Shown: piece after piece, positions 12,493 through 54,455 of the stretch | How positions within the stretch are numbered: position 1 is the stretch's first letter | How the letters are laid out: every line of letters begins with the position of its first letter | Assembly (NCBI GenBank): GCA_038065475.1 | Contig: JBBTQY010000005.1 | Coordinates: forward strand, 2,793 to 66,792 | Direction of reading: 5' to 3' | Source of the DNA: Patescibacteria group bacterium | GTDB taxonomy: Bacteria; Patescibacteriota; Minisyncoccia; Ryanbacterales; GWA2-47-10b | DNA length: 64,000 nucleotides | The notes under the pieces: generated by a model | The model's database searches: none | Told to the model about the DNA's origin: nothing | Seen by the model: only the letters and a program-made list of their open reading frames with translations | Position numbers and translations under genes: made by a program

Positions 12493-13287
12493 ATGAGACA
12501 GGGAAACAGAGGCAATAGCCGTGGGCGGAGCAATCCACCCCAACTCACTGTGGATCTCAAAGTTGACTTCGAAAAAGTCGGCGATGAGGTTCATGTCACC
12601 CTTAGCGCCCTTGTTCATCAAGGGAAGGAGCTCGTATCAGGTACGAGCGTCCAGTTCTTCACCCGCGGTACGAAGGTCGGTTCACCCAAAGTGACCGATC
12701 CGCAGGGTCGTGCGAAAGCCGTCTATGCTTACTCCGGCGATTGCATTGCTGAAGTACAGATCGTGGACAAGGCAGTGTGCGATTCCGAACCTGTCCGCTT
12801 ACCCGACGAATTCAAGTCGAAGCGGGCGAAGCTCCCGAACCAGATCCATGTGAGCCCAGCAGGGCGTGGCCGAGTTTTTGTCTCGGTGGCAGTTCTCGCT
12901 CAGGACGATGCGCCTATCAATGGTGCGGCCGTCAATATCTTCGAGGCGGGAGAGTCGCGTGATCCGAAAGTGATCAAGCGAAGTATTCCACTCGAGACAT
13001 TGACGACCAATGAGCGCGGTGCGCTCGATCCGGTGCCGTACTTCGATGTAGCACTGATGCAGGGCAAGCGTCGCCTGTTCGTTCATGTGGCTGGCACGAA
13101 GCTCCAAGCTTTCGTGACCTGTCGCGCATCGAGCATTCGGCCGCCCAAGGCGCCCGCGGATCTCCCGCGGGTTGCCGCAGCTTTCAGGAGGAAACTCTTC
13201 GGTACGCGTTCGATTCGTGCGTTCTTGCACGGTATCCGTATGGGTGGCGAGGCTCTTCGTGAACAGAGAAAGGGAGGCTCAAAGTGA
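12493..13287 (+). CDS. hypothetical protein (Arg-rich N-terminus, probable beta-rich domain), GC-rich
   Basis: 264 aa, about 60% GC. RBS GGAGGA upstream. No recognisable motif. Stop overlaps the next start (ATGA). Confidence 0.55.
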   Translation: MRQGNRGNSRGRSNPPQLTVDLKVDFEKVGDEVHVTLSALVHQGKELVSGTSVQFFTRGTKVGSPKVTDPQGRAKAVYAYSGDCIAEVQIVDKAVCDSEPVRLPDEFKSKRAKLPNQIHVSPAGRGRVFVSVAVLAQDDAPINGAAVNIFEAGESRDPKVIKRSIPLETLTTNERGALDPVPYFDVALMQGKRRLFVHVAGTKLQAFVTCRASSIRPPKAPADLPRVAAAFRRKLFGTRSIRAFLHGIRMGGEALREQRKGGSK

Positions 13288-14465
13288 TTCGGATCAATCT
13301 CCTTGGCGGGAAGTTGTCTCCGGCTCATAGTGGGCCGCCTCAACCAAATCCTCTCCCCCGTGGAGAGGTGCGTTCAGTGCTTGAGCAAGGTGCCTTTCTG
13401 ATCTGCATCGCGGTCCTCTCTTTTCTGGGGGCTGTCGCTGCGATCGGTTGGTGTCTCAATTCGGTATACGTTGGGAATGGCGCGTCATGGCCTGCGATCA
13501 TTATCGCGGCCGCACTGCTGTTCTTGATGTACCGCGTCGTCGTCATCGCTGATAGGCGTTGGTGGGAGAGCAAGCGAGCAAAGGTACTTGCGGGTGCGGT
13601 CGAGGACGAAAGTCCCGAGCCGACTCTCCTCAAGCCTGAGGATCGGATATTCGATGAAGTACTCGCAGATGATGAATTGCCTCGGCGTTGGAGAAAAAAG
13701 AAGTATCCACGCTACAAGGTGTGGTGCCGAGCGAAGCGGATCCGCAAGATTCGCCGCAAGCAAAGTCTCAAGACGTGGTTTGCCAAGCAGAAGCAACGCT
13801 TCGTAAACCTCTGGGGCTGGGTAAAAGGCTCCTGGAAGAAGAAGCGGAAGAAGAGCAAGAAAAAGGAGACGCCGTCTCCCTTCCTTGCATGGTTCATGCA
13901 TCTGGGATTCACGCTCCGCGTGAGCAACAATGCACGAGCGACGCTGTTTCTACTCGTCTCCGCATTCTGGTTCTGCATCAACGTCGTCACGCTCATTGCG
14001 AGCTTCGTGTTCGCACCGAACAGGCTGACGGATACACAGGAGCAGAGCTACAACTACATGCTCCATGGTGTGCGAGCAACCGATCTCGAGATGTCATCAA
14101 CCCTCACCCAGGTTCTTACGTGGTGTTGGTCGATCGTCTCGTCTCTGTTCGTAAACCCCTGGTCATGGATTCTCTGGTTCTCCTTCGCACTCTTTAGCTT
14201 CGTCTACTTCGTAGTAGCACAGCGCGAAGAGTTCGCGGAGGTAATCGATAGTGCGCGTGAGACGGTCTCGCAGCGCGCCACAACCGACTTGCCCGACCAA
14301 CCGTCTGGGCAGCCGAGCGCTCATCCGCCGGCAGGAGCTGGTGGTGGAGCGCTCGGAAACTTCTTGAAGAATCGCGCGCGTTTCGCCGTAGAAGATCTTT
14401 CGTGGGATCTCATCACGAGGGGCTTCCAGAGAGGCATAGGCGCGCTGCGTAGAGGGGCAATATGA
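13284..14465 (+). CDS. hypothetical polytopic membrane protein with a highly basic loop
   Basis: 393 aa. N-terminal IRINLLGG (PilN-like N-terminus only). Four or more predicted TM helices. Lys/Arg-rich segment RRWRKKKYPRYKVWCRAKRIRKIRRKQ...SWKKKRKKSKKKE. Translationally coupled (ATGA) to both neighbours. Confidence 0.55.
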   Translation: MIRINLLGGKLSPAHSGPPQPNPLPRGEVRSVLEQGAFLICIAVLSFLGAVAAIGWCLNSVYVGNGASWPAIIIAAALLFLMYRVVVIADRRWWESKRAKVLAGAVEDESPEPTLLKPEDRIFDEVLADDELPRRWRKKKYPRYKVWCRAKRIRKIRRKQSLKTWFAKQKQRFVNLWGWVKGSWKKKRKKSKKKETPSPFLAWFMHLGFTLRVSNNARATLFLLVSAFWFCINVVTLIASFVFAPNRLTDTQEQSYNYMLHGVRATDLEMSSTLTQVLTWCWSIVSSLFVNPWSWILWFSFALFSFVYFVVAQREEFAEVIDSARETVSQRATTDLPDQPSGQPSAHPPAGAGGGALGNFLKNRARFAVEDLSWDLITRGFQRGIGALRRGAI

Positions 14466-15988
14466 CGATTTCGAATCGTGTTCTCTCTGGCCTCGGCGTT
14501 GCCGCGGCCCTACTTCTCTGGTTTTCCGGTCTCTTCTCGGCCTGGTTGCTTTGTCTGGCCGCGGCGGTTGTCATCATTGGCTTCCTTGCGGCGCAGCTGA
14601 CCCCGACGTTCACGCGTCCTATCCTCATCGCTACGGCAGTTATCATCGTCGTGGCGTTGGGGGTGGAGGCCTTTCGTACAAGCTTCTTCACGAACGAGGA
14701 CGACCGTTTTTCCTACACCGCACTCGGCAACTCGGAACTCGAGGCTGACATGGTGTGGGCGGAAGGGATCGATCCTCATGCTCGGGAGCTTCGCGGACGT
14801 CTTGCGACCAAGTGTCGAAATACGGAAACCGAAGTGACCGAGCAGATCGACAAGAGGATGCAGGCGATCAATGCAAAGAACTTTCTGCGTCCTGCGCAGG
14901 TCAAGCGCGTACGGCGCCAGATCACTCGCCTTCAGGAGTTTCGCGCACTGTGCCGTGAGGCTATCGTGCAGTCGGAGGCGCCAGAGGAAGTGACGCCGGC
15001 AGTCTCGGCATCAAGCGGTGCGAGTATCACGGGATGGATCCCGGCGTTCTCGTTCGCTTGGCCCAGCATGCTGGTGCTCACAGGTATCGTGTTTCTCGTG
15101 TGGTGGTTTCTGCCGCGTGGCAGTGCTACCGCGGGAATCACGAAGCTCGCCGGGTTCGCGCTACTCGTTTTATTGGTAGCGCAGGGCTGGCAGCACGTTC
15201 TTCCGGAGTATTGGAAGGATGCGCTTGCTCGCCGCGGGCTCACGACGAGCCTGCATGCGGTGACCGCGATCGATTCGCCCACAGCTCCCGCGCGAGACTA
15301 CATCCGCGATCGTTGTGAGGCGAGACTCCAAGAGAAGACGGAGGCGCTCAAGGTCACTTACCCGACGCTCTCGGATGAAGCGGCTCTCGAAGAGGCCGGC
15401 AAAGAGCTTGCCAAGATCGAGAGCTTCGGCTACGAGTGCGGTGCACTCGTAGCGCCGCGGGTCACGCCCCAGCTCGCTGAAAGCGTGCCGAGTCAGGCAA
15501 TCTTTCCGATCGCCGTCGCGGTCGGTCTGATATTGGTACTGCTCCTCGCCGCACTTTGGGGCAGGGGTAGTGCACTTGGCACCACCGTGTCGGCGATGCT
15601 CATCATCGCGGCCATGGGTGTCATCTTCTACTACGTCAGTATGAGAGTCAGCAGCCCCGAGATTGCACTACCCGAACTCAACATGGCGGAGTTCGAAGAG
15701 ACTGCCTTGAACGCTCCGCAATGGGGAATCGTATCGGTGACCTTCAGAATACCTCCTCATAAACATGTAGGAGAATTCCAAATCGGGCGTCTCAAGCTCA
15801 CGCTCAAAGACGCCAAGATCGGGGGTAAGAACTACAAGTTCATCGCTCAGGGGCCCGCTCCACGCAACGAGCAGCTCTACGCTGGCCCGTCGGCAAGTCT
15901 GCCATCAGGGACAGCTCGAATGTTCCTCACCAACGACGGCAACGAGCCGATGAAGGTCACTCTCCGTTTCCAGAAGCACACAGTCTGA
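14462..15988 (+). CDS. hypothetical polytopic membrane protein
   Basis: 508 aa, six or more hydrophobic helices, C-terminal soluble domain (LKLTLKDAKIGGKNYKFIAQGPAPRNEQLYAGPSASLPSGTARMFLTNDGNEPMKVTLRF). GC-rich. Confidence 0.55.
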   Translation: MTISNRVLSGLGVAAALLLWFSGLFSAWLLCLAAAVVIIGFLAAQLTPTFTRPILIATAVIIVVALGVEAFRTSFFTNEDDRFSYTALGNSELEADMVWAEGIDPHARELRGRLATKCRNTETEVTEQIDKRMQAINAKNFLRPAQVKRVRRQITRLQEFRALCREAIVQSEAPEEVTPAVSASSGASITGWIPAFSFAWPSMLVLTGIVFLVWWFLPRGSATAGITKLAGFALLVLLVAQGWQHVLPEYWKDALARRGLTTSLHAVTAIDSPTAPARDYIRDRCEARLQEKTEALKVTYPTLSDEAALEEAGKELAKIESFGYECGALVAPRVTPQLAESVPSQAIFPIAVAVGLILVLLLAALWGRGSALGTTVSAMLIIAAMGVIFYYVSMRVSSPEIALPELNMAEFEETALNAPQWGIVSVTFRIPPHKHVGEFQIGRLKLTLKDAKIGGKNYKFIAQGPAPRNEQLYAGPSASLPSGTARMFLTNDGNEPMKVTLRFQKHTV

Positions 15989-20672: not shown

Positions 20673-20743
20673 CGGAGTGTAGTATACCGGTAGTACGTCT
20701 GCTTTGGGAGCAGATAGACTGGGTTCGATTCCCAGCACTCCGA
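20673..20743 (+). tRNA. tRNA-Pro (anticodon TGG)
   Basis: Same scaffold as the 17974 tRNA (CGGAGTG...TAGTATACCGGTAGTAC...CTGGGTTCGATTCCCAG CACTCCG). Anticodon arm TCTGC-TTTGGGA-GCAGA. Confidence 0.7.
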
Positions 20744-20773
20744 CAATTTGGTTTTAGCTGCTAGTATATATGT

Positions 20774-22228
20774 ATGGCCAATAAACAGCTTTTGGATTAT
20801 GTCCAAAAATCACTCCAAAGCGGATATTCAGCTCAAGAAATAAGCCCTGCCCTTGTCGATAAAGGATGGGGGACGAGCGAGGTGCACGAGGCAGTTCTTG
20901 CTGCGCAAGAACTGATACGCCAAAAACCAGCGTTGCCACCACTTCCACCACCTCCATCAAAAGCATCAGAATGGACCATTGAGCTCAAGAGTTTGTCTGC
21001 TTCACAGATTTTACTATATCTTGGCGGACTCATTGTGGTACTCGCAGGACTTATTTATATCGGTATCAATTGGCAGCAGTGGGGATCTTTGGGGCGTATT
21101 TTTGCTATCTTTCTGCCAATGTTTATTTGCTATGCGCTCGGTACTCCACTCTTTTTTAAAGAGGAATATAAAAAACATGGCATTGTATTTGTAGTTGTTG
21201 GATCATTGTTGTTTCCGCTTTTTCTTTCGATTGTATTTGTGGAGATGAAACTTTTTGGTAAGTTTTACGGAAATAGTTTTGGTATGGCGGTTTCTTTGCC
21301 TACGTTTTTACTGTATAGCATGCTCAGTTTTGCGTTTCGGTTTCCTATTTGGGCAGGGCTTTATCAAGGTGCGGGGTTGTTTGTATATTTTTATTTTTGG
21401 AAACTATTGGGTGTTGCCGATTTTGATAAAGAGCCAGTACTCGCGTGGCTCTTTTTGATACTGGGTACTGCGTACATGGTGCTCAGTTTGTGGTATGAGC
21501 GTCTTGAGAAAAAAATAGAGGCGTGGCATTCGCATATCTTAGGGTCGCTGGTTGTCGTATGCTCGCTTGCGCGTATTTTTGTTGAAACACTTGATCGCGC
21601 GTATTTCTCATGGATCTTGATCGTGCTTGGTATTGGTTACTTTGCTTTTGGTGCGTGGGTTGAGTCAAATAAGATAAAAAAATATTGTTCGGTCGCATAT
21701 TTTATAGGCGCGGGGCTCGTGTTTTTCTCGCTGTTGCGATTAGGGCTCGACGGAACTCTTTTGAAAGATATCACTGCTACGCGGGGATTTGATCAAGATA
21801 TTATTGGTTGGTCAAATATTATTGTTGGCGTTTTGTATCTTGCACTTAGCGCGCTTTTGTCGCAACTTAGTAAATTTGGTTTGCAGGAAGGGTCTCGATA
21901 TAAAGAATTTTTTGATTTGGCAGGACCCGGACTTGTACTCAGCGCCGTTTTCTTTTTGGGGCTTGATGGATCAAAGCCGATTTATGAGACATTGTTGTTG
22001 CTTGCAAGTCTCGGATTTATCTTTGGTAGTATCCCAAAACGTTCACGTCAATTTTTGTACCTTGGTACATTGTTTTTGATTGTTTATATTTTCTCCATTG
22101 GTGGAGAATATTTTGAAAACGATGTTGGTTGGCCAATTATTTTGTTTGTGGCTGGCTTTGTCTCAATGGGTATTGGCGTGGGGATTGAAAAAGTACGACG
22201 AAAATATTTTACGGCCTCAAAAGGTTGA
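20774..22228 (+). CDS. hypothetical polytopic membrane protein with a soluble N-terminal domain and Pro-rich linker
   Basis: 484 aa. The N-terminal ~60 aa are followed by PALPPLPPPPS, then about 12 hydrophobic helices. Confidence 0.6.
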   Translation: MANKQLLDYVQKSLQSGYSAQEISPALVDKGWGTSEVHEAVLAAQELIRQKPALPPLPPPPSKASEWTIELKSLSASQILLYLGGLIVVLAGLIYIGINWQQWGSLGRIFAIFLPMFICYALGTPLFFKEEYKKHGIVFVVVGSLLFPLFLSIVFVEMKLFGKFYGNSFGMAVSLPTFLLYSMLSFAFRFPIWAGLYQGAGLFVYFYFWKLLGVADFDKEPVLAWLFLILGTAYMVLSLWYERLEKKIEAWHSHILGSLVVVCSLARIFVETLDRAYFSWILIVLGIGYFAFGAWVESNKIKKYCSVAYFIGAGLVFFSLLRLGLDGTLLKDITATRGFDQDIIGWSNIIVGVLYLALSALLSQLSKFGLQEGSRYKEFFDLAGPGLVLSAVFFLGLDGSKPIYETLLLLASLGFIFGSIPKRSRQFLYLGTLFLIVYIFSIGGEYFENDVGWPIILFVAGFVSMGIGVGIEKVRRKYFTASKG

Positions 22229-22418
22229 TGAAATAAGAAAAACACTCACTCGGCTTTCTAGAGAGGAGGTCTGCAGGATTACGCGAAGTCTTGTAAAAAG
22301 TCTGATTTTGTGCTATAGTTTCTCCGAACTTAGAACCTCGATAACATAAATTTCTAGTTGAAACACCCGCATCTAAAGCCGAAACTGCTTTTTGATGCCG
22401 AGATTAGGAGGAAGGGAA

Positions 22419-24077
22419 GTGAAGAGACTTTTAATTCTCTTGCTCGCACTTGCGAGCTTGAGCTTGCGACCGCCCGGGACGGCGGCGCAGAGTTCGATCA
22501 ACGTCCCGGACGTGACGGGCGACCAGCTCGTCATGTTCTACGACGCGCGCTCATCGCGCGTGCCGTTCATGACCATCTCGAACCCGGCGCTCGAGCGTGT
22601 CGTTCTGAGGGCTGACTTCTACAACATCGACCTCACTTTCGTCATCGCCTCCGAGACCATTGTTCTCGAAGGCGGTAGTAATGTCGTCATCGATCCGACC
22701 GGAGTCGATGGTGGCATCGTCAACGGCAACGCAGGTCTTGCGGTCATCACTCCCACGCGGAGCGAGACCGACATCCAACCGGTGGTACCTCCAGCGCCCC
22801 TCATGGGGAATTGGACCTTGGCGAATCTCGATCTCGCCTCTGCGTTCGGCGAGAACATCTTCGGGCGTCTCGCGGTGCGGCAATCGGGCGAGCGGGCGAG
22901 TGCATGGAGTACCGTCGATGGTGATGCGGTGCGCTACCAGCGCATCGATCCTCACGCCGTGGTCATCCCTGCGCACTACAATCCCCAAGACTTGGGTCCT
23001 GTGGAGTTCGATGGTAACCGCGTGGTCATTGCGGTCTTCCGTGACGTCTACGACGGCGGCTTTCGTCTCGCTCCGCAGTTCGAGCGATTCGAAGCTTCAT
23101 TCATCGAACGCTTCGGATACCAGGTGGCCAAGACCCAGATCAACGTCGATGGCGTGCTGATGAGCGATCTCGTTTCGCTCGCTGGTGCGCAGCTTCGTTC
23201 GTCTGGAAAGGTGTTCTTCCGTCGTCTCGACCGTGCAAGCGGCGGGAACGCATTCGGCGTCTTCAGTCAGTCGCTCGGCACATTCGGTGCCGGTGGCCGC
23301 ATGATCGCCGTGGAGAACGTGCCGGATTTTTCACAAGCTCCAGCGCCTACTGGGACGCCGACGCCGGAGCCTACTGATCGTCCGACTCCGCGTCCCACCC
23401 CTACCTTCACGCCTCGGCCTACGCCGAGCCCGACACCAATTCCGACTCGGACGCCACAACCTACGGCGACTCCGAAGAAAACTCCGGCACCGACCGCAAA
23501 ACCTACGCAGACCCCGCGGCCGACGGCAACACCGAAGCCGACGGTGACTGCAAAGCCAACGCCGAGTCCCACACGGACGCCGTCGCCTACGGCGATTCCG
23601 ACCAACACTCCGCGGCCTACGGAAACTCCGAGGCCGACGGTAACACCGATCAAGACTCCGACGCCTACTCCGACCAGGACACCCACTCCGTCGCCGAGTC
23701 CAACGCCTACAATGACTCCGACCCCAACGCCGTCTGCAACTCCAACGCAGACGCCAACTCCGACACCAACGCAGACTCCGTCGTGTATCGACAACGACAA
23801 CGACGAGTACTGTGCGGGAAGCGGCCCCAGCAAGGACTGCAATGACTCGAATGCATCGGTAAACCCCGGTGCGACCGAGCAATGCAACAACATCGACGAC
23901 AACTGCCGCAATGGTACTGACGAGGACTTCCCCGAGAAGGGAGGAGTGTGCTGGCGCCTCGTTGGCACTGCCTGCTGGCGTGGCGAGAAGCGCTGCGCGC
24001 AAGGAGGTGGCGGGGGAGGCAACACCATCCAGTGTCTGCCGCTCTCGATAGAGCCTGACTCAAACCAGTGCAACTAA
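22419..24077 (+). CDS. secreted protein: N-domain + Thr/Pro-rich linker + MopE-like Cys-rich (putative metal-binding) C-terminal domain
   Basis: Probable GTG start 8 nt after AGGAGG (22405-22410). Signal peptide [23 protein letters not shown]. About 140 aa of (T/P) repeats. C-terminus [49 protein letters not shown]...CWRGEKRC matches the DCDDxNxxxNPGAxExCNGxDDNC MopE-like motif. GC-rich (~62%). Confidence 0.7.
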
Positions 24078-24296
24078 AGAAACAATCATAGGAGGGCGAT
24101 CATCATCCTCCGAATCATGGCCCAGTACGCGTTCCACGCGCGCTGGGCTTTTTTAATACAATGACTTGCAAAAAAGCTGATTTTATGATATAGTTTTTCG
24201 GAACTTCAGGTCCTTGTTAATTCCTAGTTTTTGAGAAGAAAAAAATCGCACCCCAGAGATAAGGGTGCTCAACCATTCAACCGAAGGAGAGAAACC

Positions 24297-25781
24297 ATGA
24301 AGCGTTCGCTGTTTGGATTGCTGATCGTTCTCGCGCTGTTCATGCCCCTGCTGGCCTGTGCCAGCGACATGCCGCGTGAGCTCGATGACTACTGCGTCTT
24401 CGCCAACAAGAAGTTGGTGCTCGGCACCAACGCGGCCGTGCTCGATGGTAGCGCTGGCGTCAACAAGTCGAGTGCGCGTGCCTCGAAGGTCCTCATGACC
24501 ATGAGGCCGTACTCGATCGTCGATCCGGATTTCCCGACCGCCGCATCGAGCGTCAAGATGGCAACGTACGCGACAGTAGGGGAGTTGTTCCGCAACTTCC
24601 TGACTTTGTCGGGGCCTGTGAACATCGACGAGGAGTATAGTGGGACGTTCCCCGTGCTCACTCTGCCCGAGCTCCCGTTCTTCTTGCCGGAGGACGACCA
24701 CATCATCCTACAAGAAGGGACGAAGTGGCTCGGTCCCGGGCAGTACGGGTTTCTCGAGGTAGGACCTGGGGCCACCGTCATCCTGACGGGCGGCGAGTAC
24801 CACTTTCTGCAGACCTGGTTTCGCTCGGGCTCTCAGCTTTACTACGAGAGTCCAGTCGACGTTCGTGTCCAGGGAAAGTTCATGGGTGATGAAGGGATCG
24901 TGATGCGTCCGGCCCTTTGGGCTGATGTATTGCCTCACGAGGCAAGCTTCGCGATTGGTGGGCCGATGGTGACCTTCGGGCCACTCGGCTCTTACGAGGG
25001 GATGTTCTATGCTCCTCGCAGTACCGTTCGAGTTCAGAGGCAGACGACGATCACCGGCCAGTTGGTCGGCAACAAGATCCGATTTGCCGACAACGCACGG
25101 TGCGTCTGGGCTGCGGCGGAAATCACGACGACTCCAACCCCCACGCCAAGTCCAACACCAACCCCAACGAGGACTCCAAGTCCAACGCCAACGTTGACAC
25201 CGACAGCGACTCCGTCGCCAACACCGACGAAAACGCCGACCCCAACTCCGACTCGTACACCAACCCCGACCCCGTCGGCAACACCAACATCCGTTCCCAC
25301 GCTGTCGCCAACGCCAAATCCAACGGCGACCCCGACTCCTTTGCCGACGGCCACGCCAACGCCCACACCGACCAGGACGCCGACCCCCGCGCCGACGCAG
25401 ACGGCGACGCCAACCGCGATTCCCACCCCAACACCCTCGGTAGCGCCGACGGCAACTCCCACCCCGACTCCCGTGCAGTCACCCATCTGCGTCGACAACG
25501 ACAACGACGAGTACTGTTTAGGGCAAGGGCCGGGGAAGGATTGCAACGATGCGAACGCATCGGTGAACCCCGGCGTCGTCGAACAATGCAACAACATCGA
25601 CGACAACTGCATCAACGGCACCGATGAGGACTTTCCCGGCAAGGGTGCGGTGTGCTGGCGCCTCGTCGGCACTGCTTGCTGGCGCGGCGAGTCACGCTGT
25701 GCCCAGAGTGCTGGCGGGGGAGGCAACACCATCCAGTGCCTACCTCTGACGTCTGAGTCAGATTCTTCCAAATGCAACTAG
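24297..25781 (+). CDS. lipoprotein paralogue: different N-domain + Thr/Pro-rich linker + near-identical MopE-like Cys-rich C-terminal domain
   Basis: RBS AAGGAGA. Signal [21 protein letters not shown] with LLAC lipobox. C-terminal ~100 aa are about 85% identical to the 22419 protein ([41 protein letters not shown]...). Confidence 0.7.
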
Positions 25782-26038
25782 GAAAATCATAGAAGGGTAG
25801 CAATCTACCTTTCGAATCACAGCCCAGTACGCGTTCCACGCGCGCTGGGCTTTTCTTTATCTAAAACTATTGACCCCGTTAGAGTAAATTTTTACTCTAA
25901 CGGGGTTGACTTTTTATATAAAAAATGTTAAAGTTTCTCCGTTATATCGGCTCCTTAAAAACTTCATAACGACGAGCAAGATACTAAATTTCAGCTACAA
26001 AACTATTACTGGATTCAAAAAACTAAGGAACCAAAAAT

Positions 26039-28225
26039 ATGAAGAAAGGAATACTTGCTGTATTCTTTTCTCTTGTTCTTGTTTCAATGCCATTCTTTGC
26101 ACTAGCAGAAGGCGACGCGGCACCAGAGGTGCAAGCCGAACCGCAGGTTGAGACACTTGTTGAAACCGAATCTGCTCAAGCGATTGCTCAGCTTGTCGTT
26201 ACAAATCATGCACCAACTATCGAAGGACCATCTGGCGCCACTGGCGTTGTTGGGTCTTTGGTATCGTTTGTCGTGATTGTGACCGATCAAGATGGTAATC
26301 CTGACGCAAATGGCAATATCGTCACTACTACTACCAATTTGCCTGAAGGTGCTGTGTATGATCCGATTGACGGTTCATTCGCATGGGTACCGACGGCTGC
26401 TGGTAATTATGTCGCAACATTTAACGCAACTGACAGCATCGATACAACGGTGCACGAAGTTGAAATTGAAATAACAGAAGGAAATCGCTTACCCGTCATT
26501 GAAGGACCGACATACGCTTCAACAACTGTTGGATCGATGGTCGAGTTTTTCATCATCGTCACAGATCCCGACGGCAATCCGGACGCCCAGGGAAATATTG
26601 TGGCCGTGACCTCTGAACTTCCTGAAGGAGCCTTGTATGATGCCGGCGCCTCACAATTTGTGTGGGTACCGACGACAACGGGCACTACCACAGTAACGTT
26701 CTTTGCGTTTGACGGTACAGGTACGACTACTCACGAAACGATCATCGAAGTGTTTCCTGCGGATTCCGCGGCAAATCTTCCGCCGTTCTTCGTGAACTTC
26801 AACCCGCCCCTCGTGGCGACTTCAACTGAGGCTTACGCCTATGATGTTGAAGCTCAGGATCCTGAGAATGATACATTAACATTCTCGCTTGACCTTGCTC
26901 CCGTAGGTATGACGATCGCATCATCAACTGGTGTGATCTCATGGACTCCTACGTTGGCACAGGCATCAAGCACCTCGTACTCTGTAATTGTTGGCGTTTC
27001 CGACGCAACTCACACTGCAACTACAACCTATACAATTTTGGTAAACGAACCGTCTGTCGTTACAGGCAATCGATTGCCGATAATTGAAGGTCCCACGCAT
27101 GCGACTACCACGGTAGGTACACTTCTTGAACTTGTGTTCATTGTGACCGATCCCGACGGTAATCCTGACGTGTTTGGTAACGTTGTTGAAGTCTCAACTG
27201 CGTTGCCGCTTGGTGCTACCTATAGCACCAGCACCTCTTTGTTCTCGTGGACCGCGACATCTACGGGAACCTATCTCGCAAAACTCTTTGCGTTTGACGG
27301 CACGGGTACGACTACCCATGAGCTCATCATTGATGTAGTTTCAGGTAATCGTCCGCCGGTCATCGAAGGCATCACGAGTATTGAGAGAAAAGTGAATGAA
27401 GCCATCGACTTTGTGATTATCGTCAGCGATCCTGACGGAAATCCTGATGCCGAAGGTGATATCATCACTGTGACGACGATGTTACCGCATGGAGCAACGT
27501 TCGCTACCAGCACTGGACTCTTTTCTTGGTCGTCTTCTGAGGCAACAACCACAGAAGCGATCTTTAAAGCGTTTGATGGTGAGGCGACGACGACTCATAC
27601 GGTACTCATAACAGTACGCGCCGCAGATACTCCACCACCACCCCCACCGCCACCCGGCGGAGGAGGAGGCGGCGGTGGGGGAGGAGGCGGAGGTGGTGGT
27701 TGTTCAAATTGTGGTAGCAATGGTCCTCCCGGACTTATTGGCCCTACCCCAATCAACCCACCACCAACTTCACTTCCACCCCCACCTGCACCGAGTACTC
27801 CCGTAACTAATCCAGTTCCTTTACAACCTAGCCCCAGCCCACGACCCGTGCAGCCACCGCCGGTCTATCGACCAGCACCTGCACCAGATCTTGCTCTCGT
27901 GTCTACCACGACTCCAACGACAGCGCCCGCTGAAGGCCCGTCGCTTGCGTCTGTATTACTTGCGGGATTATTCAACTTCTTGGATTGGATCCGCGCAAAT
28001 TGGTGCATCCTTGGTTGGTTGCTCTGGCTTCTGACTCTTCTTGCATTCATCCTCTATGTGATCTTTACGAACACCGATGAAGATGACGAGAATAAAGAAG
28101 CAGTGCCACCCTCAGGGTTGCCCATAATGCCATTCGACGATGAGTCGGACGGAACTATCAAAGAAGCTGTATCGGAGAATACGCTCAGCGAATACTGGGA
28201 AACAACTCCACAAGAGAATAAGTAA
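26039..28225 (+). CDS. cell-surface protein with five tandem putative-Ig (He_PIG/cadherin-like) repeats, Pro/Gly stalk and C-terminal TM anchor
   Basis: Signal peptide MKKGILAVFFSLVLVSMPFFALA. Five ~100-aa repeats of the form N(R/H)xPxIEGP...VxFxxxVTDPDGNPD...FxWxPT. Then PPPPPPPP-GGGGGGGGGGGGGGG, a Pro-rich segment, a TM helix (ILGWLLWLLTLLAFILYVIF) and an acidic tail. Confidence 0.75.
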   Translation: MKKGILAVFFSLVLVSMPFFALAEGDAAPEVQAEPQVETLVETESAQAIAQLVVTNHAPTIEGPSGATGVVGSLVSFVVIVTDQDGNPDANGNIVTTTTNLPEGAVYDPIDGSFAWVPTAAGNYVATFNATDSIDTTVHEVEIEITEGNRLPVIEGPTYASTTVGSMVEFFIIVTDPDGNPDAQGNIVAVTSELPEGALYDAGASQFVWVPTTTGTTTVTFFAFDGTGTTTHETIIEVFPADSAANLPPFFVNFNPPLVATSTEAYAYDVEAQDPENDTLTFSLDLAPVGMTIASSTGVISWTPTLAQASSTSYSVIVGVSDATHTATTTYTILVNEPSVVTGNRLPIIEGPTHATTTVGTLLELVFIVTDPDGNPDVFGNVVEVSTALPLGATYSTSTSLFSWTATSTGTYLAKLFAFDGTGTTTHELIIDVVSGNRPPVIEGITSIERKVNEAIDFVIIVSDPDGNPDAEGDIITVTTMLPHGATFATSTGLFSWSSSEATTTEAIFKAFDGEATTTHTVLITVRAADTPPPPPPPPGGGGGGGGGGGGGGGCSNCGSNGPPGLIGPTPINPPPTSLPPPPAPSTPVTNPVPLQPSPSPRPVQPPPVYRPAPAPDLALVSTTTPTTAPAEGPSLASVLLAGLFNFLDWIRANWCILGWLLWLLTLLAFILYVIFTNTDEDDENKEAVPPSGLPIMPFDDESDGTIKEAVSENTLSEYWETTPQENK

Positions 28226-40698: not shown

Positions 40699-42453
40699 AT
40701 GAGAATCGATTCGGGGCAACTCAAGGCGTTTCTGTTAGATTCGGGGCTTGTCTCCGAAAAAGACATTGACGCCGCACTTAAAAAATCCAAAGAGCAGGAT
40801 TCGCGTCCCGGCGATATTCTTGTCGCTCAAGGGAAGATAACTCAAAAAGACCTCGAGCGTGTATACGGCTACATCCTCGGGATTCCTTTTGTAAATCTTG
40901 AAGGGGAGAAGATTGAGCCCGAAGTGTTGCATATGGTGCCGGAACCCATCGCGCGAGCTCATAACGTTGTCGCCTATAAAAAAACCGGTAAAGATTTGGA
41001 GGTAGCCATGCTTGATCCGGAGGATCTCGAGACTATTGAGTTCATTCACAAAAAATCAGGGCTGACCATCAAGCCGCGCATGACCAACGAGAGCTCGATG
41101 AAATATCTTCTCTCGCTCTATCAAAAGAGTTTGGAGGCGGAGTTCGGCGAGATTATCAAGGGCGAGTCTGATGGTCTCGTCACCAGCGCTGCAGTTGTTA
41201 CAGAGGCGGGAGAGAGTGGTGAAGATCTTGAAAAAGTTGCTCAAGAGTTGCCTATCATCAAGATCGTCGATACTCTCATACGTCACGCGATTTTGCAGAA
41301 AGCGTCCGATATCCATATCGAACCGCTTGAAAACGAATTGTTGGTACGTTATCGCATTGACGGTTTGTTGCGTGATGCGATGGTGTTGCCAAAAAAAATT
41401 GCCTCAGCAGTTATCGCGCGTGTCAAGGTGCTCTCGAGTCTCAAACTCGATGAAAAGCGTTTGCCGCAGGATGGTCGTTTTAAAATCGAATCACCCGAAT
41501 ATAAGTTTTCAACTCGTGTATCGGTGTTGCCGGTTTACGATGGTGAAAAGATCGTCATGCGTTTGTTGCCTGAGAACGCGCGCGGGTTTACTCTCGAATC
41601 GTTGGGTTTTCATGGTGAAGGCCTCGAACTCTTGCATCAGAGCATAAAAAAATCCGTTGGTATGATTTTGGCGACCGGTCCTACGGGTTCGGGTAAGACA
41701 ACGACGCTCTATACTATGATGGATTTGATTAATACTCCCGATGTAAATATTTCTACTGTCGAAGATCCTATTGAGTATCGCATGCCGCGTATCAATCAGA
41801 CACAGGTACGCCCCGACATCGGGTTTACCTTTGCCAACGGGCTTCGTAGTCTCTTGCGTCAAGATCCCGATGTGTTAATGGTAGGTGAAATCCGTGATGC
41901 CGAAACCGCAGGGCTCGCTATCAACGCAGCACTCACTGGTCACCTTGTACTCTCAACACTTCATACGAACTCTGCGGCGGGCGCTCTGCCCCGCCTCATC
42001 GATCTTGGTATTGAACCGTTTCTTATCGCATCAACCGTCAATATTATCATCGCCCAGCGTTTGGTGCGCACGCTCTATAAATCGCGCGAAGAGTATCATC
42101 TCAATAAAGATCAGATAGCTCAGCTCGAAAAGATTATTGATATGGAGCGCATGCTTAAATTTTTGCGTGACGAAAAGATTATCCCACCTCAAGCGAAGAT
42201 AGAAGAGGTTCCCTTTTACAAACCTGTGCCAACGCCCGATGTGCCAGATGGCTATCAGGGGCGTATCGGTGTGCATGAGGTAATGATTGTCACGCCCGCG
42301 ATGCGTGAGATGGTGATAAAGAATGCGAGTGCAGGCGAACTTGATGCGATTGCGCGCAAATCGGGCATGATGAGCATGCTCGAAGACGGCATCTTCAAAG
42401 CGGTACAGGGTATCACGACGGTCGAAGAAGTGCTGCGTGTGACACAAGAATAA
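40699..42453 (+). CDS. pilB: type IV pilus assembly ATPase PilB (GspE family)
   Basis: N-terminal GSPII_E_N domain. Walker A ILATGPTGSGKTTTLY. Asp box, His box, Walker B. Confidence 0.9.
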   Translation: MRIDSGQLKAFLLDSGLVSEKDIDAALKKSKEQDSRPGDILVAQGKITQKDLERVYGYILGIPFVNLEGEKIEPEVLHMVPEPIARAHNVVAYKKTGKDLEVAMLDPEDLETIEFIHKKSGLTIKPRMTNESSMKYLLSLYQKSLEAEFGEIIKGESDGLVTSAAVVTEAGESGEDLEKVAQELPIIKIVDTLIRHAILQKASDIHIEPLENELLVRYRIDGLLRDAMVLPKKIASAVIARVKVLSSLKLDEKRLPQDGRFKIESPEYKFSTRVSVLPVYDGEKIVMRLLPENARGFTLESLGFHGEGLELLHQSIKKSVGMILATGPTGSGKTTTLYTMMDLINTPDVNISTVEDPIEYRMPRINQTQVRPDIGFTFANGLRSLLRQDPDVLMVGEIRDAETAGLAINAALTGHLVLSTLHTNSAAGALPRLIDLGIEPFLIASTVNIIIAQRLVRTLYKSREEYHLNKDQIAQLEKIIDMERMLKFLRDEKIIPPQAKIEEVPFYKPVPTPDVPDGYQGRIGVHEVMIVTPAMREMVIKNASAGELDAIARKSGMMSMLEDGIFKAVQGITTVEEVLRVTQE

Positions 42454-42456
42454 GCC

Positions 42457-43704
42457 ATGGCACGATTTCAATTTCGCGCACGCGATCGCCAAGGTGTCGA
42501 ACAGTCGGGTCTTCGTGAGGCAAATGATCGCTTTGAGCTTGCGCGCTTCTTGCGCACCGAAGGACTTTTGATGCTTGAAGCAAATGAAATAGGATCCGGA
42601 GGTACCGGTTCAGCACCATCAAAGGGGCTCAAAAAAGATATTTCTTTTGATGTCAATAAATATTTACGCCGCGTCACGCTTTCAGATAAGATTGTATTTT
42701 CAAAAAACCTTGCAGTCATGATTGGCGCGGGTTTGCCGCTCACGCGTGCGCTCGATGCACTCTCACGCGAATCTCACAATCCCAAATTTAAGACCGCTAT
42801 TTTAGACATTGAAGATCAGATCAGGCAGGGTAAGACATTTGCTGAATCTCTCAATAAGCATCCAAAAATTTTCCCGCCACTCTATATTTCAATGGTTGAA
42901 GCGGGTGAAAAATCAGGAAAACTCAGAGAATCACTTACTATCTTGGCGTCGCAGATGCAGGCAGATTATGACTTGGTACATAAGGTGAGGGGGGCGATGA
43001 TGTACCCATCGATCATTTTGGCGGCGATGCTCCTCATCGGTACGCTTATGATTATCTATGTTGTGCCGACGCTCAGCGCCGTGTTTAAAGAGCTTAACGT
43101 TGAGCTACCTGCTTCCACGCAGTTTATTATCAGTCTCTCTGATTTTTTTATTAATCATTTTATTTTGGTGATTACTGGGTTTATAGCTTTTGTTATAGGT
43201 ATTATTGCGTTTTTGCGCACCACTTTCGGCAAGCATTTGATGGATAATGTAATCATTCGCATCCCAGTGATCGGCCCACTCGCCAAAAAATTCAATGCCG
43301 CCCGCGCTTCACGTACCCTTTCCTCTCTTTTGTCATCAGGTGTACAGGTCATGGAAGCGCTCGAAATCTCTGCGCGTGTTGTGCAAAATCATTTGTACGC
43401 GTCTACGCTCATTGATGCGAAAAAATCGATCCAAAAAGGCGAGACCATATCAAAAGTTTTTTTGGCAAACGAACAATTATATCCGTCGCTGGTAGGCGAG
43501 ATGCTCTCAGTGGGTGAAGAGACAGGTGAGAGCTCGCGCATGTTGGGAGAGGTCGCGTCATTCTACGAACAACAGGTAGCCGATGCCACAAAAGATCTCT
43601 CAACGATCATTGAGCCAGTGCTCATGATTGTTATTGGCGCCGTTGTAGGCTTTTTTGCTGTTTCAATGATTACGCCGATGTATTCTCTGGTGGGAGCTAT
43701 CTGA
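42457..43704 (+). CDS. pilC: type IV pilus platform protein PilC (GspF family)
   Basis: Two GspF repeats and three TM segments. 415 aa. Confidence 0.9.
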   Translation: MARFQFRARDRQGVEQSGLREANDRFELARFLRTEGLLMLEANEIGSGGTGSAPSKGLKKDISFDVNKYLRRVTLSDKIVFSKNLAVMIGAGLPLTRALDALSRESHNPKFKTAILDIEDQIRQGKTFAESLNKHPKIFPPLYISMVEAGEKSGKLRESLTILASQMQADYDLVHKVRGAMMYPSIILAAMLLIGTLMIIYVVPTLSAVFKELNVELPASTQFIISLSDFFINHFILVITGFIAFVIGIIAFLRTTFGKHLMDNVIIRIPVIGPLAKKFNAARASRTLSSLLSSGVQVMEALEISARVVQNHLYASTLIDAKKSIQKGETISKVFLANEQLYPSLVGEMLSVGEETGESSRMLGEVASFYEQQVADATKDLSTIIEPVLMIVIGAVVGFFAVSMITPMYSLVGAI

Positions 43705-43705
43705 T

Positions 43706-44302
43706 ATGCGTCGCGCATTTACCATAGTAGAGCTTCTTATCGTAGTCGGCATCGTAGGTCTTTTGGCAGCACTTCTCATACCGGTTTTTGGGACGTGGCG
43801 TGAACGGAGTGTTGTGCGATCTGCCGCACGCGATATCGAAAGTATTTTAAAGCTCGCACGTTCAAAGTCTCTTGCGTCTGAGGGAGGTGCAAAATATGGA
43901 GTGCTTTTTTATGATGGTGCTGCAAACTTTTCTCTTTGTAAGAATCCTGCCTATATTCCCGATCCGGTTGTTCCCAGTTCTTACAATGTGTATTCGTGTG
44001 GCACGCTTATCAATAGCCATACTCTCGGTAGCTCGCTTTCTTTTTGTGCTCCTTACACATCGAGTACCGAGCTTAAAAGTCTTGCTCCCGGTTGGGCGGT
44101 TGTACCCGGAGTTTTTTTCTCAAAACTAACAGGTGAGTATGAAAATATCGATCCTGCCTCTACCGAAGGTGTGATTTACTTCTATAATAAGAATAAGATT
44201 GCGAGTCCCTGCGGTGATCAACCCGCACTTGATGCGTGTCTTGCTGCAAAAACATGTGGGGGAGTCGTCATCACCAAGTCAGGCGTGATTTATGAAAAGT
44301 AA
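43706..44302 (+). CDS. prepilin-type minor pilin/pseudopilin
   Basis: MRRAFTIVELLIVVGIVGLLAALLIPVF N-terminal cleavage/methylation motif. 198 aa. Confidence 0.7.
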   Translation: MRRAFTIVELLIVVGIVGLLAALLIPVFGTWRERSVVRSAARDIESILKLARSKSLASEGGAKYGVLFYDGAANFSLCKNPAYIPDPVVPSSYNVYSCGTLINSHTLGSSLSFCAPYTSSTELKSLAPGWAVVPGVFFSKLTGEYENIDPASTEGVIYFYNKNKIASPCGDQPALDACLAAKTCGGVVITKSGVIYEK

Positions 44303-44789
44303 TATACAACGCGGATTTTTATTTCTCGAACTTTTAGTAGCGGTAGCGCTTATCTCTACTGTTTTTGTGACGCTCTTTTTTTTGCAGTCAAAACTTTTGC
44401 AGATCAAGCAAGATGGCATCATGAAAGTACGCGCAACATACTACGCAGAAGAAGCTATCGAGGCGCTTCGGTATGCGCGCAACGCTAACGGATGGAATGC
44501 GATCTCAAGTCTTTCCAATAATCCTACGACATATTATGTGTCGCTCGTCAGTAATGTTTGGGTAATCAATACAACGGCCGTATCACCTGATGCACCTGCC
44601 AATCTTTTTGCGCGAACCATTCAGCTTGAAGCCGTCAATCGTCAGGGCGATCAGCAAGGGGCGATCGATCCCGCAGGTAGTTATGCTGACTCGGGTACAC
44701 GTAAAGTGACTGTGACGGTGAGCTGGGATAGTGGTGCCAAGCAGGTCGTGCTTGATACGTATCTTACTGACTGGGCATCAAGTCTATGA
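44292..44789 (+). CDS. prepilin-type minor pilin/pseudopilin
   Basis: QRGFLFLELLVAVALISTVFVTLFF N-terminal motif. 165 aa. Confidence 0.65.
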   Translation: MKSNIQRGFLFLELLVAVALISTVFVTLFFLQSKLLQIKQDGIMKVRATYYAEEAIEALRYARNANGWNAISSLSNNPTTYYVSLVSNVWVINTTAVSPDAPANLFARTIQLEAVNRQGDQQGAIDPAGSYADSGTRKVTVTVSWDSGAKQVVLDTYLTDWASSL

Positions 44790-45319
44790 AGAATCGCGCC
44801 TTTACTCTTATTGAGCTTTTGGTATACGTAGGAGTGCTCATATTGGTGCTCGGAACTATTTTCTTTTTTATCGTTAATATTGTAAGCAACGAACGATCGA
44901 TCGGAGATCGTGTACGCATGATGGATGAAGCAGATTTTGTTATGCGCCAAGTGATCGACCAAACGCGCGGAGCAAAATCAATCGACCGGTCAACACAATT
45001 TGCGGCCGGTGGTAATGGAGGTCAACTCGCACTCATCAAAACCAGCTCAACGGTAAATTTTTATGTTGATGTCTCCGATCCGTTACAGCCAAAGTTGATG
45101 ATGGTGGACAGCGTAGATCCCAGCTACATACGCACTCTTACCTCTCCGCGTGTAGCAGTTGATATATTTGCGCTCACCTGTGTTGGTAGTCCGAGCTCCG
45201 CGTGTGCCGCCCTACCGACCTCCGATCCGCAAGGTGTACGCATCACCCTTGGTCTTCGCGATGTTACTACAAATCAGTCCACGGTTATTACTACCAGTGC
45301 TACACCACGCGGCTATTGA
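44786..45319 (+). CDS. prepilin-type minor pilin/pseudopilin
   Basis: MKNRAFTLIELLVYVGVLILVLG. 177 aa. Confidence 0.7.
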   Translation: MKNRAFTLIELLVYVGVLILVLGTIFFFIVNIVSNERSIGDRVRMMDEADFVMRQVIDQTRGAKSIDRSTQFAAGGNGGQLALIKTSSTVNFYVDVSDPLQPKLMMVDSVDPSYIRTLTSPRVAVDIFALTCVGSPSSACAALPTSDPQGVRITLGLRDVTTNQSTVITTSATPRGY

Positions 45320-45321
45320 TC

Positions 45322-48150: not shown

Positions 48151-48700
48151 TTATTATCTCGCAAAAGGCGTTTCTCTTATGGAGGCTGTAGTTGTGATGG
48201 CAATTTTTGCCGTTATCGTGGGTATCGTTGTTGTATCATATAGAAATTTTCTTGATGCCCAGCGATTGAACGCGGGGGTGGAGGGGACGATCTCAATGAT
48301 TCAAAAGGCTCGAGAACGAACACTTTCTTCTCGTGATGAAAGTGTTGGTGGTACTGGCAGACAGTATGGCGTGAGGTTTAATGCATATACGGTTGGTACC
48401 TTGCCAAACACGGTACAACTTCTCGATAAGACTACCGGGCTCGAGGCGGAAGACTCCGGAAGCCCGGGTCCCAAGGAAGAGACAAGATTTGCTATGCCGG
48501 CGGGAGTAAACATACAGACGGTATCCATCTTTCCCGCAGTAGTAGGAAATTTTGATATTTACTTCAAGCGTATTAGTGGTGATGTTACCAATTCTGCCAA
48601 CTCAGCGCTGTTTGCTGCAATTATCCAAATTCAGTCGAAAAATTCTGGTAAGTATAAAAGTATTACCGTTTATTCGACAGGTGTCGTCGAGGTTCAGTAA
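48125..48700 (+). CDS. prepilin-like protein
   Basis: LAKG|VSLMEAVVVMAIFAVIVGIVVV (Gly then Glu at +5). 191 aa. Several in-frame Met starts within the first 4 codons. Confidence 0.6.
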   Translation: MTMMKSRHNYYLAKGVSLMEAVVVMAIFAVIVGIVVVSYRNFLDAQRLNAGVEGTISMIQKARERTLSSRDESVGGTGRQYGVRFNAYTVGTLPNTVQLLDKTTGLEAEDSGSPGPKEETRFAMPAGVNIQTVSIFPAVVGNFDIYFKRISGDVTNSANSALFAAIIQIQSKNSGKYKSITVYSTGVVEVQ

Positions 48701-48741
48701 TATACCATTCTCAGAAGGGGCACAGCTGGTATAATAAAACC

Positions 48742-50007: not shown

Positions 50008-50548
50008 GCTCCTCCCCGTAAAGTCTTTGCGGATAAAAAGCGGGCAAGCGGGATCTACGTTGTTTGAGGTTCTGGTATACGTCGCTATTTTTGTTCTCAT
50101 GAGTATCGCCGTCGCTCGAGGGTTTGGGCAGGCAGGAAGTCTTTTTACGGTATCGCGCAATGAACGCCGCGCGTCGAGTGTTGCTCAGGTGACGCTCGAT
50201 CGAATTGTCCGCGAGATACGTCTTGCCTGTGACGTCGAGAGTGTTACGCCGACGAGCATTCAACTGCGTTCCTATAGTGATTTTGAGCCCGCCACAGGGC
50301 AGGCTTGTAATACTTCAAAAACCATTAGCCTTGCGTCCCAGCGAATCTCACTCAATGGAGTACCGTTGACGCCTCTCGGAGGCGTCAGTATCAATGCGCT
50401 TCAGTTCCAATCAGTCGTGATGCCCGCGAATTTTGCGGGGTCACAAGCGGTACGTGTCGGTATTTCGGTGATTGCAGGATCGGGAAGCGGGCAGATTTCT
50501 CGGATGTATTATGCGACAGCGGTTTTGCGCCAAAGCTATGCTCAATAA
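49994..50548 (+). CDS. prepilin-type pseudopilin (184 aa)
   Basis: Start reassigned to METIKLL (49994). The ORF-track 49628 start overlaps the previous gene out of frame for 380 nt. GSTLFEVLVYVAIFVLMSIAVA motif. Confidence 0.55.
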   Translation: METIKLLPVKSLRIKSGQAGSTLFEVLVYVAIFVLMSIAVARGFGQAGSLFTVSRNERRASSVAQVTLDRIVREIRLACDVESVTPTSIQLRSYSDFEPATGQACNTSKTISLASQRISLNGVPLTPLGGVSINALQFQSVVMPANFAGSQAVRVGISVIAGSGSGQISRMYYATAVLRQSYAQ

Positions 50549-53339: not shown

Positions 53340-53370
53340 ATCTTTTTATACTACGAAGGGTGGCAAGACT

Positions 53371-53388
53371 GGTGTATACTAAAAAGCA
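53371..53388 (+). promoter_or_regulatory. extended -10 element GGTGTATACTAAAAAGCA immediately upstream of the pilM ATG (likely a leaderless or near-leaderless start)
   Basis: TATACT at 53376-53381. The ATG at 53389 is 7 nt downstream, with no Shine-Dalgarno sequence. Confidence 0.5.
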
Positions 53389-54453: not shown

Positions 54454-54455
54454 AT

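Follow-up and report, generated by a model that had tools for sequence, protein, structure and literature searches.

We show here that a metagenome-assembled genome (MAG) of the Patescibacteria (candidate phyla radiation, CPR) carries a real and well-delimited pair of genes for modular, putatively exported proteins that stand on a duplicated expression chassis. The pair lies in a stretch of 64,000 nucleotides of contig JBBTQY010000005.1 (GCA_038065475.1), called the window here, in which all positions are counted. Two open reading frames (ORFs) on the same strand, gene A (22419-24077, +; 552 aa) and gene B (24297-25781, +; 494 aa), were found where a preliminary description of this DNA had seen a duplicated cassette, and that view is borne out: promoter, tail and terminator are shared and further cassettes are present in sister genomes. 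Each gene combines a signal peptide, a payload domain that differs between the two (N_A in gene A, N_B in gene B), a Pro/Thr (PT) linker and a cysteine-rich C-terminal module, C1 (Table 1). Judged by the comparison of the cassettes, the pair is shown to be a duplication of the chassis with different N-domains, at a locus that is recombinationally active. We regard the anatomy and evolution of the locus, as described here, as very probably correct, and the whole explanation, in which anatomy, evolution, a horizontal origin and a docking role are blended, as slightly favoured.

Shared tail and expression chassis

The C-terminal 98 aa of the two proteins align without a gap, with 79/98 identical residues (81%), 228/297 identical nucleotides (77.6%) and all ten cysteines conserved. 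The strong identity agrees with the preliminary description, its figure of about 85% has to be lowered. The Pfam model PF11617 (Cu-binding_MopE; 30 positions, gathering cut-off 27 bits), which had been proposed as a check on the tail, matches both proteins over model positions 1-30, with 35.5 bits in A (residues 472-501) and 30.8 bits in B (residues 415-444), and it is also matched by the orthologues. The linkers (68-74% Pro+Thr) are alike in composition only, because the true offset gives a DNA identity of 0.64, a level that other in-phase offsets also attain (up to 0.675), compared with 0.776 for the C-domain. Homology of the linkers is therefore rejected, and of the same Thr/Pro linker claimed earlier the composition stands. 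The lead of the C-domain over the linkers also speaks against a pure low-complexity similarity of the tails, a possibility that had been raised together with the first description.

The likeness of the two genes extends into their expression signals, and further than first claimed. A and B share a full sigma-70 promoter, consisting of TTGYAA, a 17-nt spacer and TGnTATAGT together with about 10 nt downstream, so that the -35 box, the spacer and the downstream nucleotides add to the extended -10 element noted before. The pattern has two matches in the window, with none expected. The terminators of A and B, already described as the same, are identical at 29/29 positions (two occurrences in the window, none expected by chance), and the likeness of the terminator region reaches 40/42 nt. 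Within the window the promoter and the motifs of the 3' untranslated region (UTR) occur at A and B only.

Promoter, 5'UTR, 3'UTR and terminator are common to all seven cassettes that were found in this and related genomes. The 5'UTR is 85-110 nt long, about 95 nt being typical, and a hairpin lies at the equivalent position in 7/7 minimum-free-energy (MFE) folds, with stem sequences that vary by cassette (GCAUC/GAUGC, GCACCC/GGGUGC, GCAUCCA/UGGAUGC and others). The 3'UTR has the same order in every cassette, a first hairpin being followed by an invariant GAATCA and the terminator. In the alignment of the seven 3'UTRs 94.6% of the cells are paired and both sides have changed in 9/19 pairs; none of 500 shuffles matches the observed values, and slid controls pair in 25-56%. 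The terminator stems carry compensatory changes between genomes, and the position of the stem-loop right after the stop codon, the compensatory changes across the seven cassettes and the T-run are those of a Rho-independent terminator. Both terminators were missed by a simple scanner because the stem has an internal bulge. The UTRs match no Rfam family at the gathering threshold or at E<=1. A scan of the GTDB species representatives with the promoter pattern gave no match, and a scan of the JGI metagenomes gave three already known lineages and nothing else. The start of gene A is most likely GTG 22419, 7 nt after an AGGAGG ribosome-binding site, and the GTGAAGAG start is kept in all gene A orthologues; gene B starts with ATG 24297.

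Table 1. Position of the cassette features and of the tRNA gene upstream of them (window coordinates; AF2, AlphaFold2; pLDDT, predicted local distance difference test).
Feature	Position	Strand	Remarks
tRNA-Pro(tgg)	20673..20744	+	ARAGORN, Rfam; upstream boundary of the variable region
Promoter of gene A	22291..22319	+	-35 TTGTAA, 17-nt spacer, extended -10 TGcTATAGT; kept in all 7 cassettes
5'UTR stem-loop of gene A (GCATC...GATGC)	22368..22397	+	about 20 nt 5' of the ribosome-binding site; MFE fold
Gene A Sec signal peptide, 24 aa	22419..22490	+	read from sequence, cleavage site inferred; kept in orthologues
N_A payload domain, predicted all-beta	22491..23333	+	44 homologues, AF2 pLDDT 90.9, no Pfam model
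Pro/Thr linker of gene A, 150 aa, 68% P+T	23334..23783	+	
C1 module of A	23784..24077	+	97 aa from first Cys, 10 Cys, plus stop; DNDNDEY loop, MopE motif and Cys-rich cap
3'UTR hairpin 1 of A, then conserved GAATCA	24091..24111	+	covariation in 7 cassettes
Intrinsic terminator of A	24120..24154	+	GCCCAGTACGCG TTCCA CGCGCGCTGGGC and T-run
Promoter of gene B	24166..24194	+	-35 TTGCAA, 17-nt spacer, extended -10 TGaTATAGT
5'UTR stem-loop of gene B (GCACCC...GGGTGC)	24248..24268	+	MFE fold
Gene B signal peptide, terminal lipobox LLA/C	24297..24356	+	Cys peculiar to this genome
N_B payload domain	24357..25124	+	Patescibacteria-only family; last ~35 residues weakly like the DUF7305 end
Pro/Thr linker of gene B, 121 aa, 74% P+T	25125..25487	+	
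C1 module of B	25488..25781	+	97 aa from first Cys, 10 Cys, plus stop
3'UTR hairpin 1 of B, then GAATCA	25792..25813	+	covariation in 7 cassettes
Intrinsic terminator of B	25822..25856	+	stem identical to that of A

Head and tail combinations at one locus

Homologue searches and contig look-ups gave seven cassettes in five related Patescibacteria contigs or lineages, with one or two cassettes per sister genome. The window has the order YraN, tRNA-Pro, DUF2157, N_A-C1, N_B-C1 and a gene for an immunoglobulin (Ig) repeat protein. L001/L007 has YraN, tRNA-Pro, N_A-extra MopE-C1, N_B-C1 and Ig, L002/L003/L009 has YraN, tRNA-Pro, N_B-C2 and Ig, and L004/5/6/8 has YraN, tRNA-Pro, N_A-C2 and an Ig-like gene; L010 carries N_A-C2 on a contig without the upstream genes. 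The cassettes are located downstream of the tRNA-Pro gene in 4/4 contigs that reach far enough upstream (window, L001, L002, L004/L008). C2 is an 82-aa, ten-Cys tail of the MopE type, homologous to C1 in its core only (about 30% identity) and 73-83% identical between N_A and N_B carriers. All four combinations of head and tail are seen, N_A with C1 and N_B with C1 (window, L001), N_B with C2 (L002) and N_A with C2 (L004, L010), and their occurrence at one tRNA-adjacent locus therefore argues for module shuffling there. The linkers vary in length between 50 and 150 aa across the cassettes, a comparison that had been suggested before. The L001 orthologue of gene A (L001 8022-9785) has an extra complete MopE motif (GCIDNDGDGRGQFCPLGPDCNDNDSRIFPGNREACDGVDNDCDGQTDEGGVCP) in the middle of the PT linker, so that it contains two MopE units.

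The C1 modules carry a further signature of exchange. When the C1 DNA of both genes is compared between the window and L001, 19 informative sites join the two paralogues of a genome, 17 of them at nt 98-187, and 10 sites group by orthologue, of which 8 lie at nt 198-271; the cross pattern is found at 4 sites. The central tract of C1 groups by genome and the 3' tail by gene, which points to a tract of gene conversion in the middle of the module. The synonymous divergence (dS) is 0.55 for the L001 paralogues, compared with 1.84 for the B orthologues. By these patterns, the C1 copies within a genome are shown to be partly homogenised by gene conversion. The preliminary description had left the choice between domain shuffling and concerted evolution, and both are seen here, the former in the head and tail combinations and the latter in the conversion tract.

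Between the window and L001, dS is 0.86 for N_A and 0.79 for N_B (flanking genes, 0.38-1.26), and the ratio of nonsynonymous to synonymous divergence (dN/dS) is 0.17 and 0.12, respectively (housekeeping genes, 0.02-0.03). A dS like that of the flanking genes together with a dN/dS that is low but above that of housekeeping genes indicates that the pair is older than the split of the two lineages, functional and fast-evolving at the protein level. On the strength of these divergence estimates, the genes are shown to be under purifying selection and to have been vertically inherited for at least as long as the window and L001 lineages have been separate. A search of 22000-26200 for inverted repeats found none, there is no recombinase among the neighbouring genes and no Rfam match was obtained, and a site-specific system for variable surface proteins (invertible promoters, integron cassettes) is rejected for these reasons.

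Heads, export signals and relation of the tail to MopE

N_A and N_B have no detectable similarity (BLASTP best E=12; none at 1e-3), as expected from the unrelated N-domains of the first description. The AF2 model of N_A (pLDDT 90.9, predicted template-modelling score 0.86) is all-beta and appears to have two sandwich-like lobes. A Foldseek search of the PDB with this model found no match at E<=0.001, the sole local match being TM1070, and every match to viral structures had a template-modelling (TM) score of 0.25 or less. Sequence searches with N_A and N_B against the PDB were empty, and A and B match no NCBIfam model. N_B weakly resembles the end of PF23981 (DUF7305; 22.7 bits, E=9.9e-5, below the 27-bit gathering threshold; profile positions 139-173 of 185), its orthologues (3/3) match the same end similarly weakly, and the sequence pattern is beta-solenoid-like.

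The proteins are probably exported by the Sec pathway. A signal peptide with MKR, a hydrophobic core and AAQ, ACA or ASA can be read from the sequence of 7/7 cassette proteins, and the signal peptides proposed earlier for A and B have this n-h-c pattern. The lipobox LLAC, also proposed earlier, is present in window gene B, its Cys is not kept in the orthologues. Because the position is Ser in P0045 and Gly in P0046, lipidation is not a family-wide property, and a lipid anchor is likely in window B alone.

The MopE-like nature of the tail holds for the 30-residue motif and not for a relationship to the solved MopE protein. A C1 profile has no match at E<=1 among all PDB chains, a set in which the crystal structure of MopE published by Helland et al. 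(2008) should be present. PF11617 spans a small part of MopE/CorA and lacks specificity (PMC6189053), and Cys/Asp motifs of this sort are also found in teneurins and gametolysins (PMC3278476). A search with the C1 profile in a library of 1.84 billion proteins returned 9,632 matches, mostly giant arrays of 8-50 MopE units. C1 is best read as one full MopE repeat plus a Cys-rich cap, taken out of a multi-repeat array, because the last unit of P0052 matches C1 over positions 18-88, through the cap. The multi-repeat MopE-related proteins of Myxococcota and other high-GC bacteria have the same unit, with a DxDxDxY loop, DCxDxNxxxxPGAxExCNxxDDxCxGxxDE and a Cys-rich hairpin. However, they carry 8-50 tandem units in 800-3,700 aa, whereas here a lone C-terminal unit with its cap is placed behind a PT spacer and an unrelated payload. 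There is one MopE unit per window protein, and the two units of L001 gene A are split by the PT linker. A scan of genome contigs based on C1 found distant MopE motifs only, in a Myxococcia MAG and a Euryarchaeota MAG.

Base composition and origin of the coding parts

Both coding sequences (CDSs) have 61-62% GC, in accordance with the earlier value of about 62%, and the promoters and UTRs about 40%. The GC content at third codon positions (GC3) of A and B (0.69 and 0.72) is the highest in the window, nearly all other ORFs having 0.34-0.60. It seems fairly probable that the coding parts go back to an old horizontal acquisition from high-GC bacteria (Binatia- or Myxococcota-like), which is suggested because the other relatives of N_A sit in Binatia- or "Deltaproteobacteria"-type MAGs of 71-75% GC. 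The members of the N_A family outside CPR are 39-52% identical and some are labelled Deltaproteobacteria or Candidatus Binatia. Three retrieved contigs with such relatives (L011-L013) have 71-75% GC, and the GC3 of the N_A genes is 0.91-0.94 on L011 and L012. In an unbootstrapped neighbour-joining tree the CPR copies of N_A form one clade inside the family.

One of these contigs carries a similar gene arrangement. At 682-8960 of L012, from a 72% GC Binatia/'Deltaproteobacteria' MAG, four genes come after a gene for a TonB-dependent receptor, and three of them, in tandem and with different heads, share a C-domain of about 140 aa (E 1e-17 to 1e-20). One head is a distant N_A relative with a PT/PS linker of about 150 aa, one is N_A and one is an unrelated Cys-rich domain. 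L012 has in common with the window the same N_A domain (50% identity), the PT/PS linkers and the different heads with one shared C-domain; it differs in that the tail of about 140 aa is unrelated to the MopE motif, in the 72% GC of the genome and in the operon with a TonB-dependent receptor. The design of different heads and the same tail in tandem is therefore older than the CPR copies. The GC3 of the cassettes ranges by lineage from 0.72 to 0.45, with 0.45-0.51 in L004 and L010, and the intermediate values fit a partial amelioration. That N_A is linked to Binatia-like bacteria of high GC could be a hint of genes passing between CPR and bacteria that are their hosts or live alongside them.

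An exception to the composition of the other ORFs is the stretch 12493-15988 (+), which is a second compositionally atypical block of three consecutive ORFs with 56-59% GC, a GC3 of 0.60-0.69 (0.69 in the last ORF) and no Pfam family, located just upstream of tRNA-Arg. Compared by position only, L001 has three called genes without Pfam match at the matching place, likewise upstream of tRNA-Arg.

A possible docking role of the tail

We propose that coding parts of a high-GC donor would now be expressed from AT-rich signals that are unlike the coding sequence. The chassis runs from a strong sigma-70 extended -10 promoter through a 5'UTR of about 95 nt with a stem-loop to the Sec signal peptide, and on through an interchangeable, presumably beta-rich payload that is either N_A or N_B, a spacer of Pro and Thr (50-150 aa) and a ten-Cys module of about 98 aa to the hairpin and the intrinsic terminator. 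The C-module might act as a dock, stabilised by Ca2+ and disulfides, that ties different payloads to one common partner. This partner could sit on the envelope of the symbiont, could be the neighbouring Ig-repeat surface protein, or could sit on the host cell, and the stiff, extended and probably glycosylated PT spacer would keep payload and dock apart. The docking role is a tentative proposal; it is preferred because the type of tail goes with the genome and not with the head, and because the donor-like lineage uses the same design.

Several observations weigh against this explanation. No docking partner was identified, and the idea of docking may well be wrong. The tails might have evolved in concert by neutral gene conversion and not through selection for a shared partner. 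C1 is present on genes A and B only within the 64-kb window, so that the occurrence of the C-domain on other proteins, as suggested before for a sorting or anchor signal, is not seen there. Among the best 150 of the 9,632 C1 matches multi-repeat giants dominate, and the whole module is matched by window gene B only. An AF2 prediction of full-length B (5 sequences) has a pLDDT of 30.6, and hence there is no structure for N_B or the C-module. Regarding the origin, a GC3 of about 0.7 has been kept through a dS of about 0.8 in two lineages, unlike simple amelioration, and N_B has no homologue outside Patescibacteria, so its foreign origin is argued from composition only.

The window encodes a third protein with a MopE motif at 60691-62655 (+; PF11617 41.3 bits), which has a lipoprotein-like signal (VLIGAC), a different C-terminal domain after the motif and an HxxxD/H-rich N-domain without Pfam match. 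Its motif lies mid-protein, its identity to C1 is 34-38% over 42-47 aa and it does not carry the module, and C1 as a general sorting signal in the window is rejected.

Alternative explanations

An unlikely alternative to the dock is that the C-module is a metal-binding or scavenging domain (copper or other) and that the proteins serve metal or nutrient acquisition. PF11617 is above threshold in both proteins, one N_A homologue (P0031) is fused to a plastocyanin/azurin domain, and the N_A paralogues of L012 are encoded directly downstream of the TonB-dependent receptor gene. However, PF11617 is a 30-residue Cys/Asp motif, and the C1 profile finds no solved MopE chain even at the permissive cut-off given above. 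The Asp/Asn-rich loops of C1 (DNDNDEY, NIDDNC..GTDE) look like Ca2+ sites, the motif lacks the His or Met typical of copper sites, and ten conserved cysteines in an exported domain more likely form disulfides; we infer a disulfide knot with Asp/Asn loops of the Ca2+ type. In methanotrophs MopE/CorA are secreted proteins that bind copper (Helland et al. 2008 as cited in PMC3278476; PMC6189053). The window proteins have the short Pfam motif and export in common with them, but no detectable homology beyond the motif (empty PDB search with the C1 profile, N-domains without Pfam or PDB relatives), and an identity with these copper proteins is rejected. The copper site of MopE is said to consist of His plus kynurenine, and no counterpart was identified in the window proteins.

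Similarly unlikely is that A and B are released freely, as effectors or adhesins directed at the host cell of the episymbiont, with a tail that is a stabilising knot or binds the host surface and not the envelope of the producer. Neither sequence has a visible C-terminal membrane anchor or sortase signal, and the predicted N-terminal lipid anchor is limited to window B. A dN/dS 5-8 times that of the housekeeping neighbours, the range of linker lengths from 50 to 150 aa and the differences of the locus between strains would also agree with free secretion. The evidence agrees equally with self-docking, for which the always adjacent, membrane-anchored Ig-repeat protein is a plausible candidate partner on the producer cell.

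Several of these elements can be joined into a broader view that we consider distinctly improbable. The tRNA-Pro-adjacent locus would then be a recombination-driven surface-display system of an episymbiotic CPR lineage, in which UTRs and PT repeats serve as homology arms for the swapping of heads and tails, the modules come from, and are aimed at, a high-GC host (Binatia- or Myxococcota-like), and GC-biased gene conversion at this hotspot sustains the high GC3. If this were true, the cassette content would help to determine the host range and would mark the identity of the host.

Recent transfer from one donor on two separate occasions, in place of an in-situ duplication with replacement of the N-domain, would explain the equal atypical GC of both CDSs. 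Yet the AT-rich promoter, 5'UTR, 3'UTR hairpin and terminator are common to A- and B-type cassettes in every genome examined, the dS between window and L001 equals that of the flanking genes, and the pair holds the same position in L001, which makes separate transfers highly improbable. That the pair is an artefact, either low-complexity likeness only, as is the case for the PT linkers, or a chimeric GC-rich assembly, has a negligible probability, given C-domains that are 77.6% (nt) and 81% (aa) identical, ungapped, with 10 aligned Cys and scores above the Pfam threshold, and a dN/dS of 0.1-0.2; a chimeric assembly is rejected by identical gene order and junctions in independent assemblies (ENA, JGI, NCBI).

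Comparison with other modular proteins

In the PT-box glycanases of Cellulomonas fimi (CenA/Cex type) different functional domains are joined by a Pro/Thr linker to a terminal module of about 100 aa that is conserved, an architecture that is a classic product of domain shuffling. The window pair has a similar architecture, but no match to a glycoside hydrolase or a carbohydrate-binding module (CBM), its tail is a ten-Cys MopE unit, and promoter, UTRs and terminator are shared too. In dockerin-bearing cellulosomal enzymes many payloads carry one small C-terminal module with Ca2+ loops behind a linker, and the type of this module goes with the genome. The window pair has this logic in common with them, by architecture only; its tails are probably disulfide-rich and have no dockerin match in Pfam, and no cohesin-like partner was identified in CPR genomes. 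Membership in the dockerins or CBMs is rejected, as neither Pfam nor NCBIfam gave such a match.

CPR bacteria (Patescibacteria) are mostly uncultured episymbionts, and surface or secreted proteins are thought to mediate the attachment to their hosts. To our knowledge, almost no surface or secreted proteins of CPR have been characterised. The locus offers two uncharacterised payload families, of which N_A has a confident AF2 model without significant match to a solved or viral structure, and it offers a single-unit MopE-type Cys knot as a common tail as well as an expression chassis with covarying RNA hairpins. It also gives direct sequence evidence that modules have been swapped and genes converted between strains. 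That surface proteins shuffle their modules and evolve in concert is already well known, and both are seen here in a poorly understood phylum.

Gene neighbourhood and annotation

The gene order in the window is CCA-adding enzyme, UPF0102 (YraN), tRNA-Pro, DUF2157 membrane protein, A, B, a 728-aa Ig-repeat protein, a pilin-like protein and RNase Y. Public annotation of both cassette genes appears incomplete. The NCBI protein MEK7649610.1, named 'MAG: putative metal-binding motif-containing protein [Patescibacteria group bacterium]', corresponds to the C-terminal 292 aa of gene B, annotated from an internal Met, and the full 494-aa version is present in a Logan assembly. An exact-sequence look-up in a protein collection found neither gene A, with the start used here, nor P0047.

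The gene for the DUF2157-like membrane protein (20774-22228, +; 42% GC, host-like) lies between tRNA-Pro and cassette A in the window genome only and is missing at this position in L001, L002 and L004. The Ig-repeat protein (26039-28225, +) has He_PIG/Big_9 domains, a tract of poly-Pro and poly-Gly (PPPPPPPPGGGGGGGGGGGGGGG) and, at its C-terminus, a membrane segment. It is the downstream neighbour in 4/4 contigs examined (window, L001, L002, L004) and is a candidate partner of the cassette proteins. Between the terminator of gene B and the promoter of the Ig-repeat gene there is a perfect palindrome with an 18-bp stem (25870-25909; TTGACCCCGTTAGAGTAAATTTTTACTCTAACGGGGTTGA). It has a duplicated TTGAC on its flanks, is unique in the window and absent at the equivalent spot in L001, L002 and L004, and looks like a small palindromic insertion. 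Further downstream, at 40699-55528 (+), a large same-strand cluster includes several ORFs with prepilin-type N-termini (e.g. 43706, 44292, 44786, 48742) and looks like a type IV pilus-like system, as would be expected for an episymbiotic CPR bacterium.

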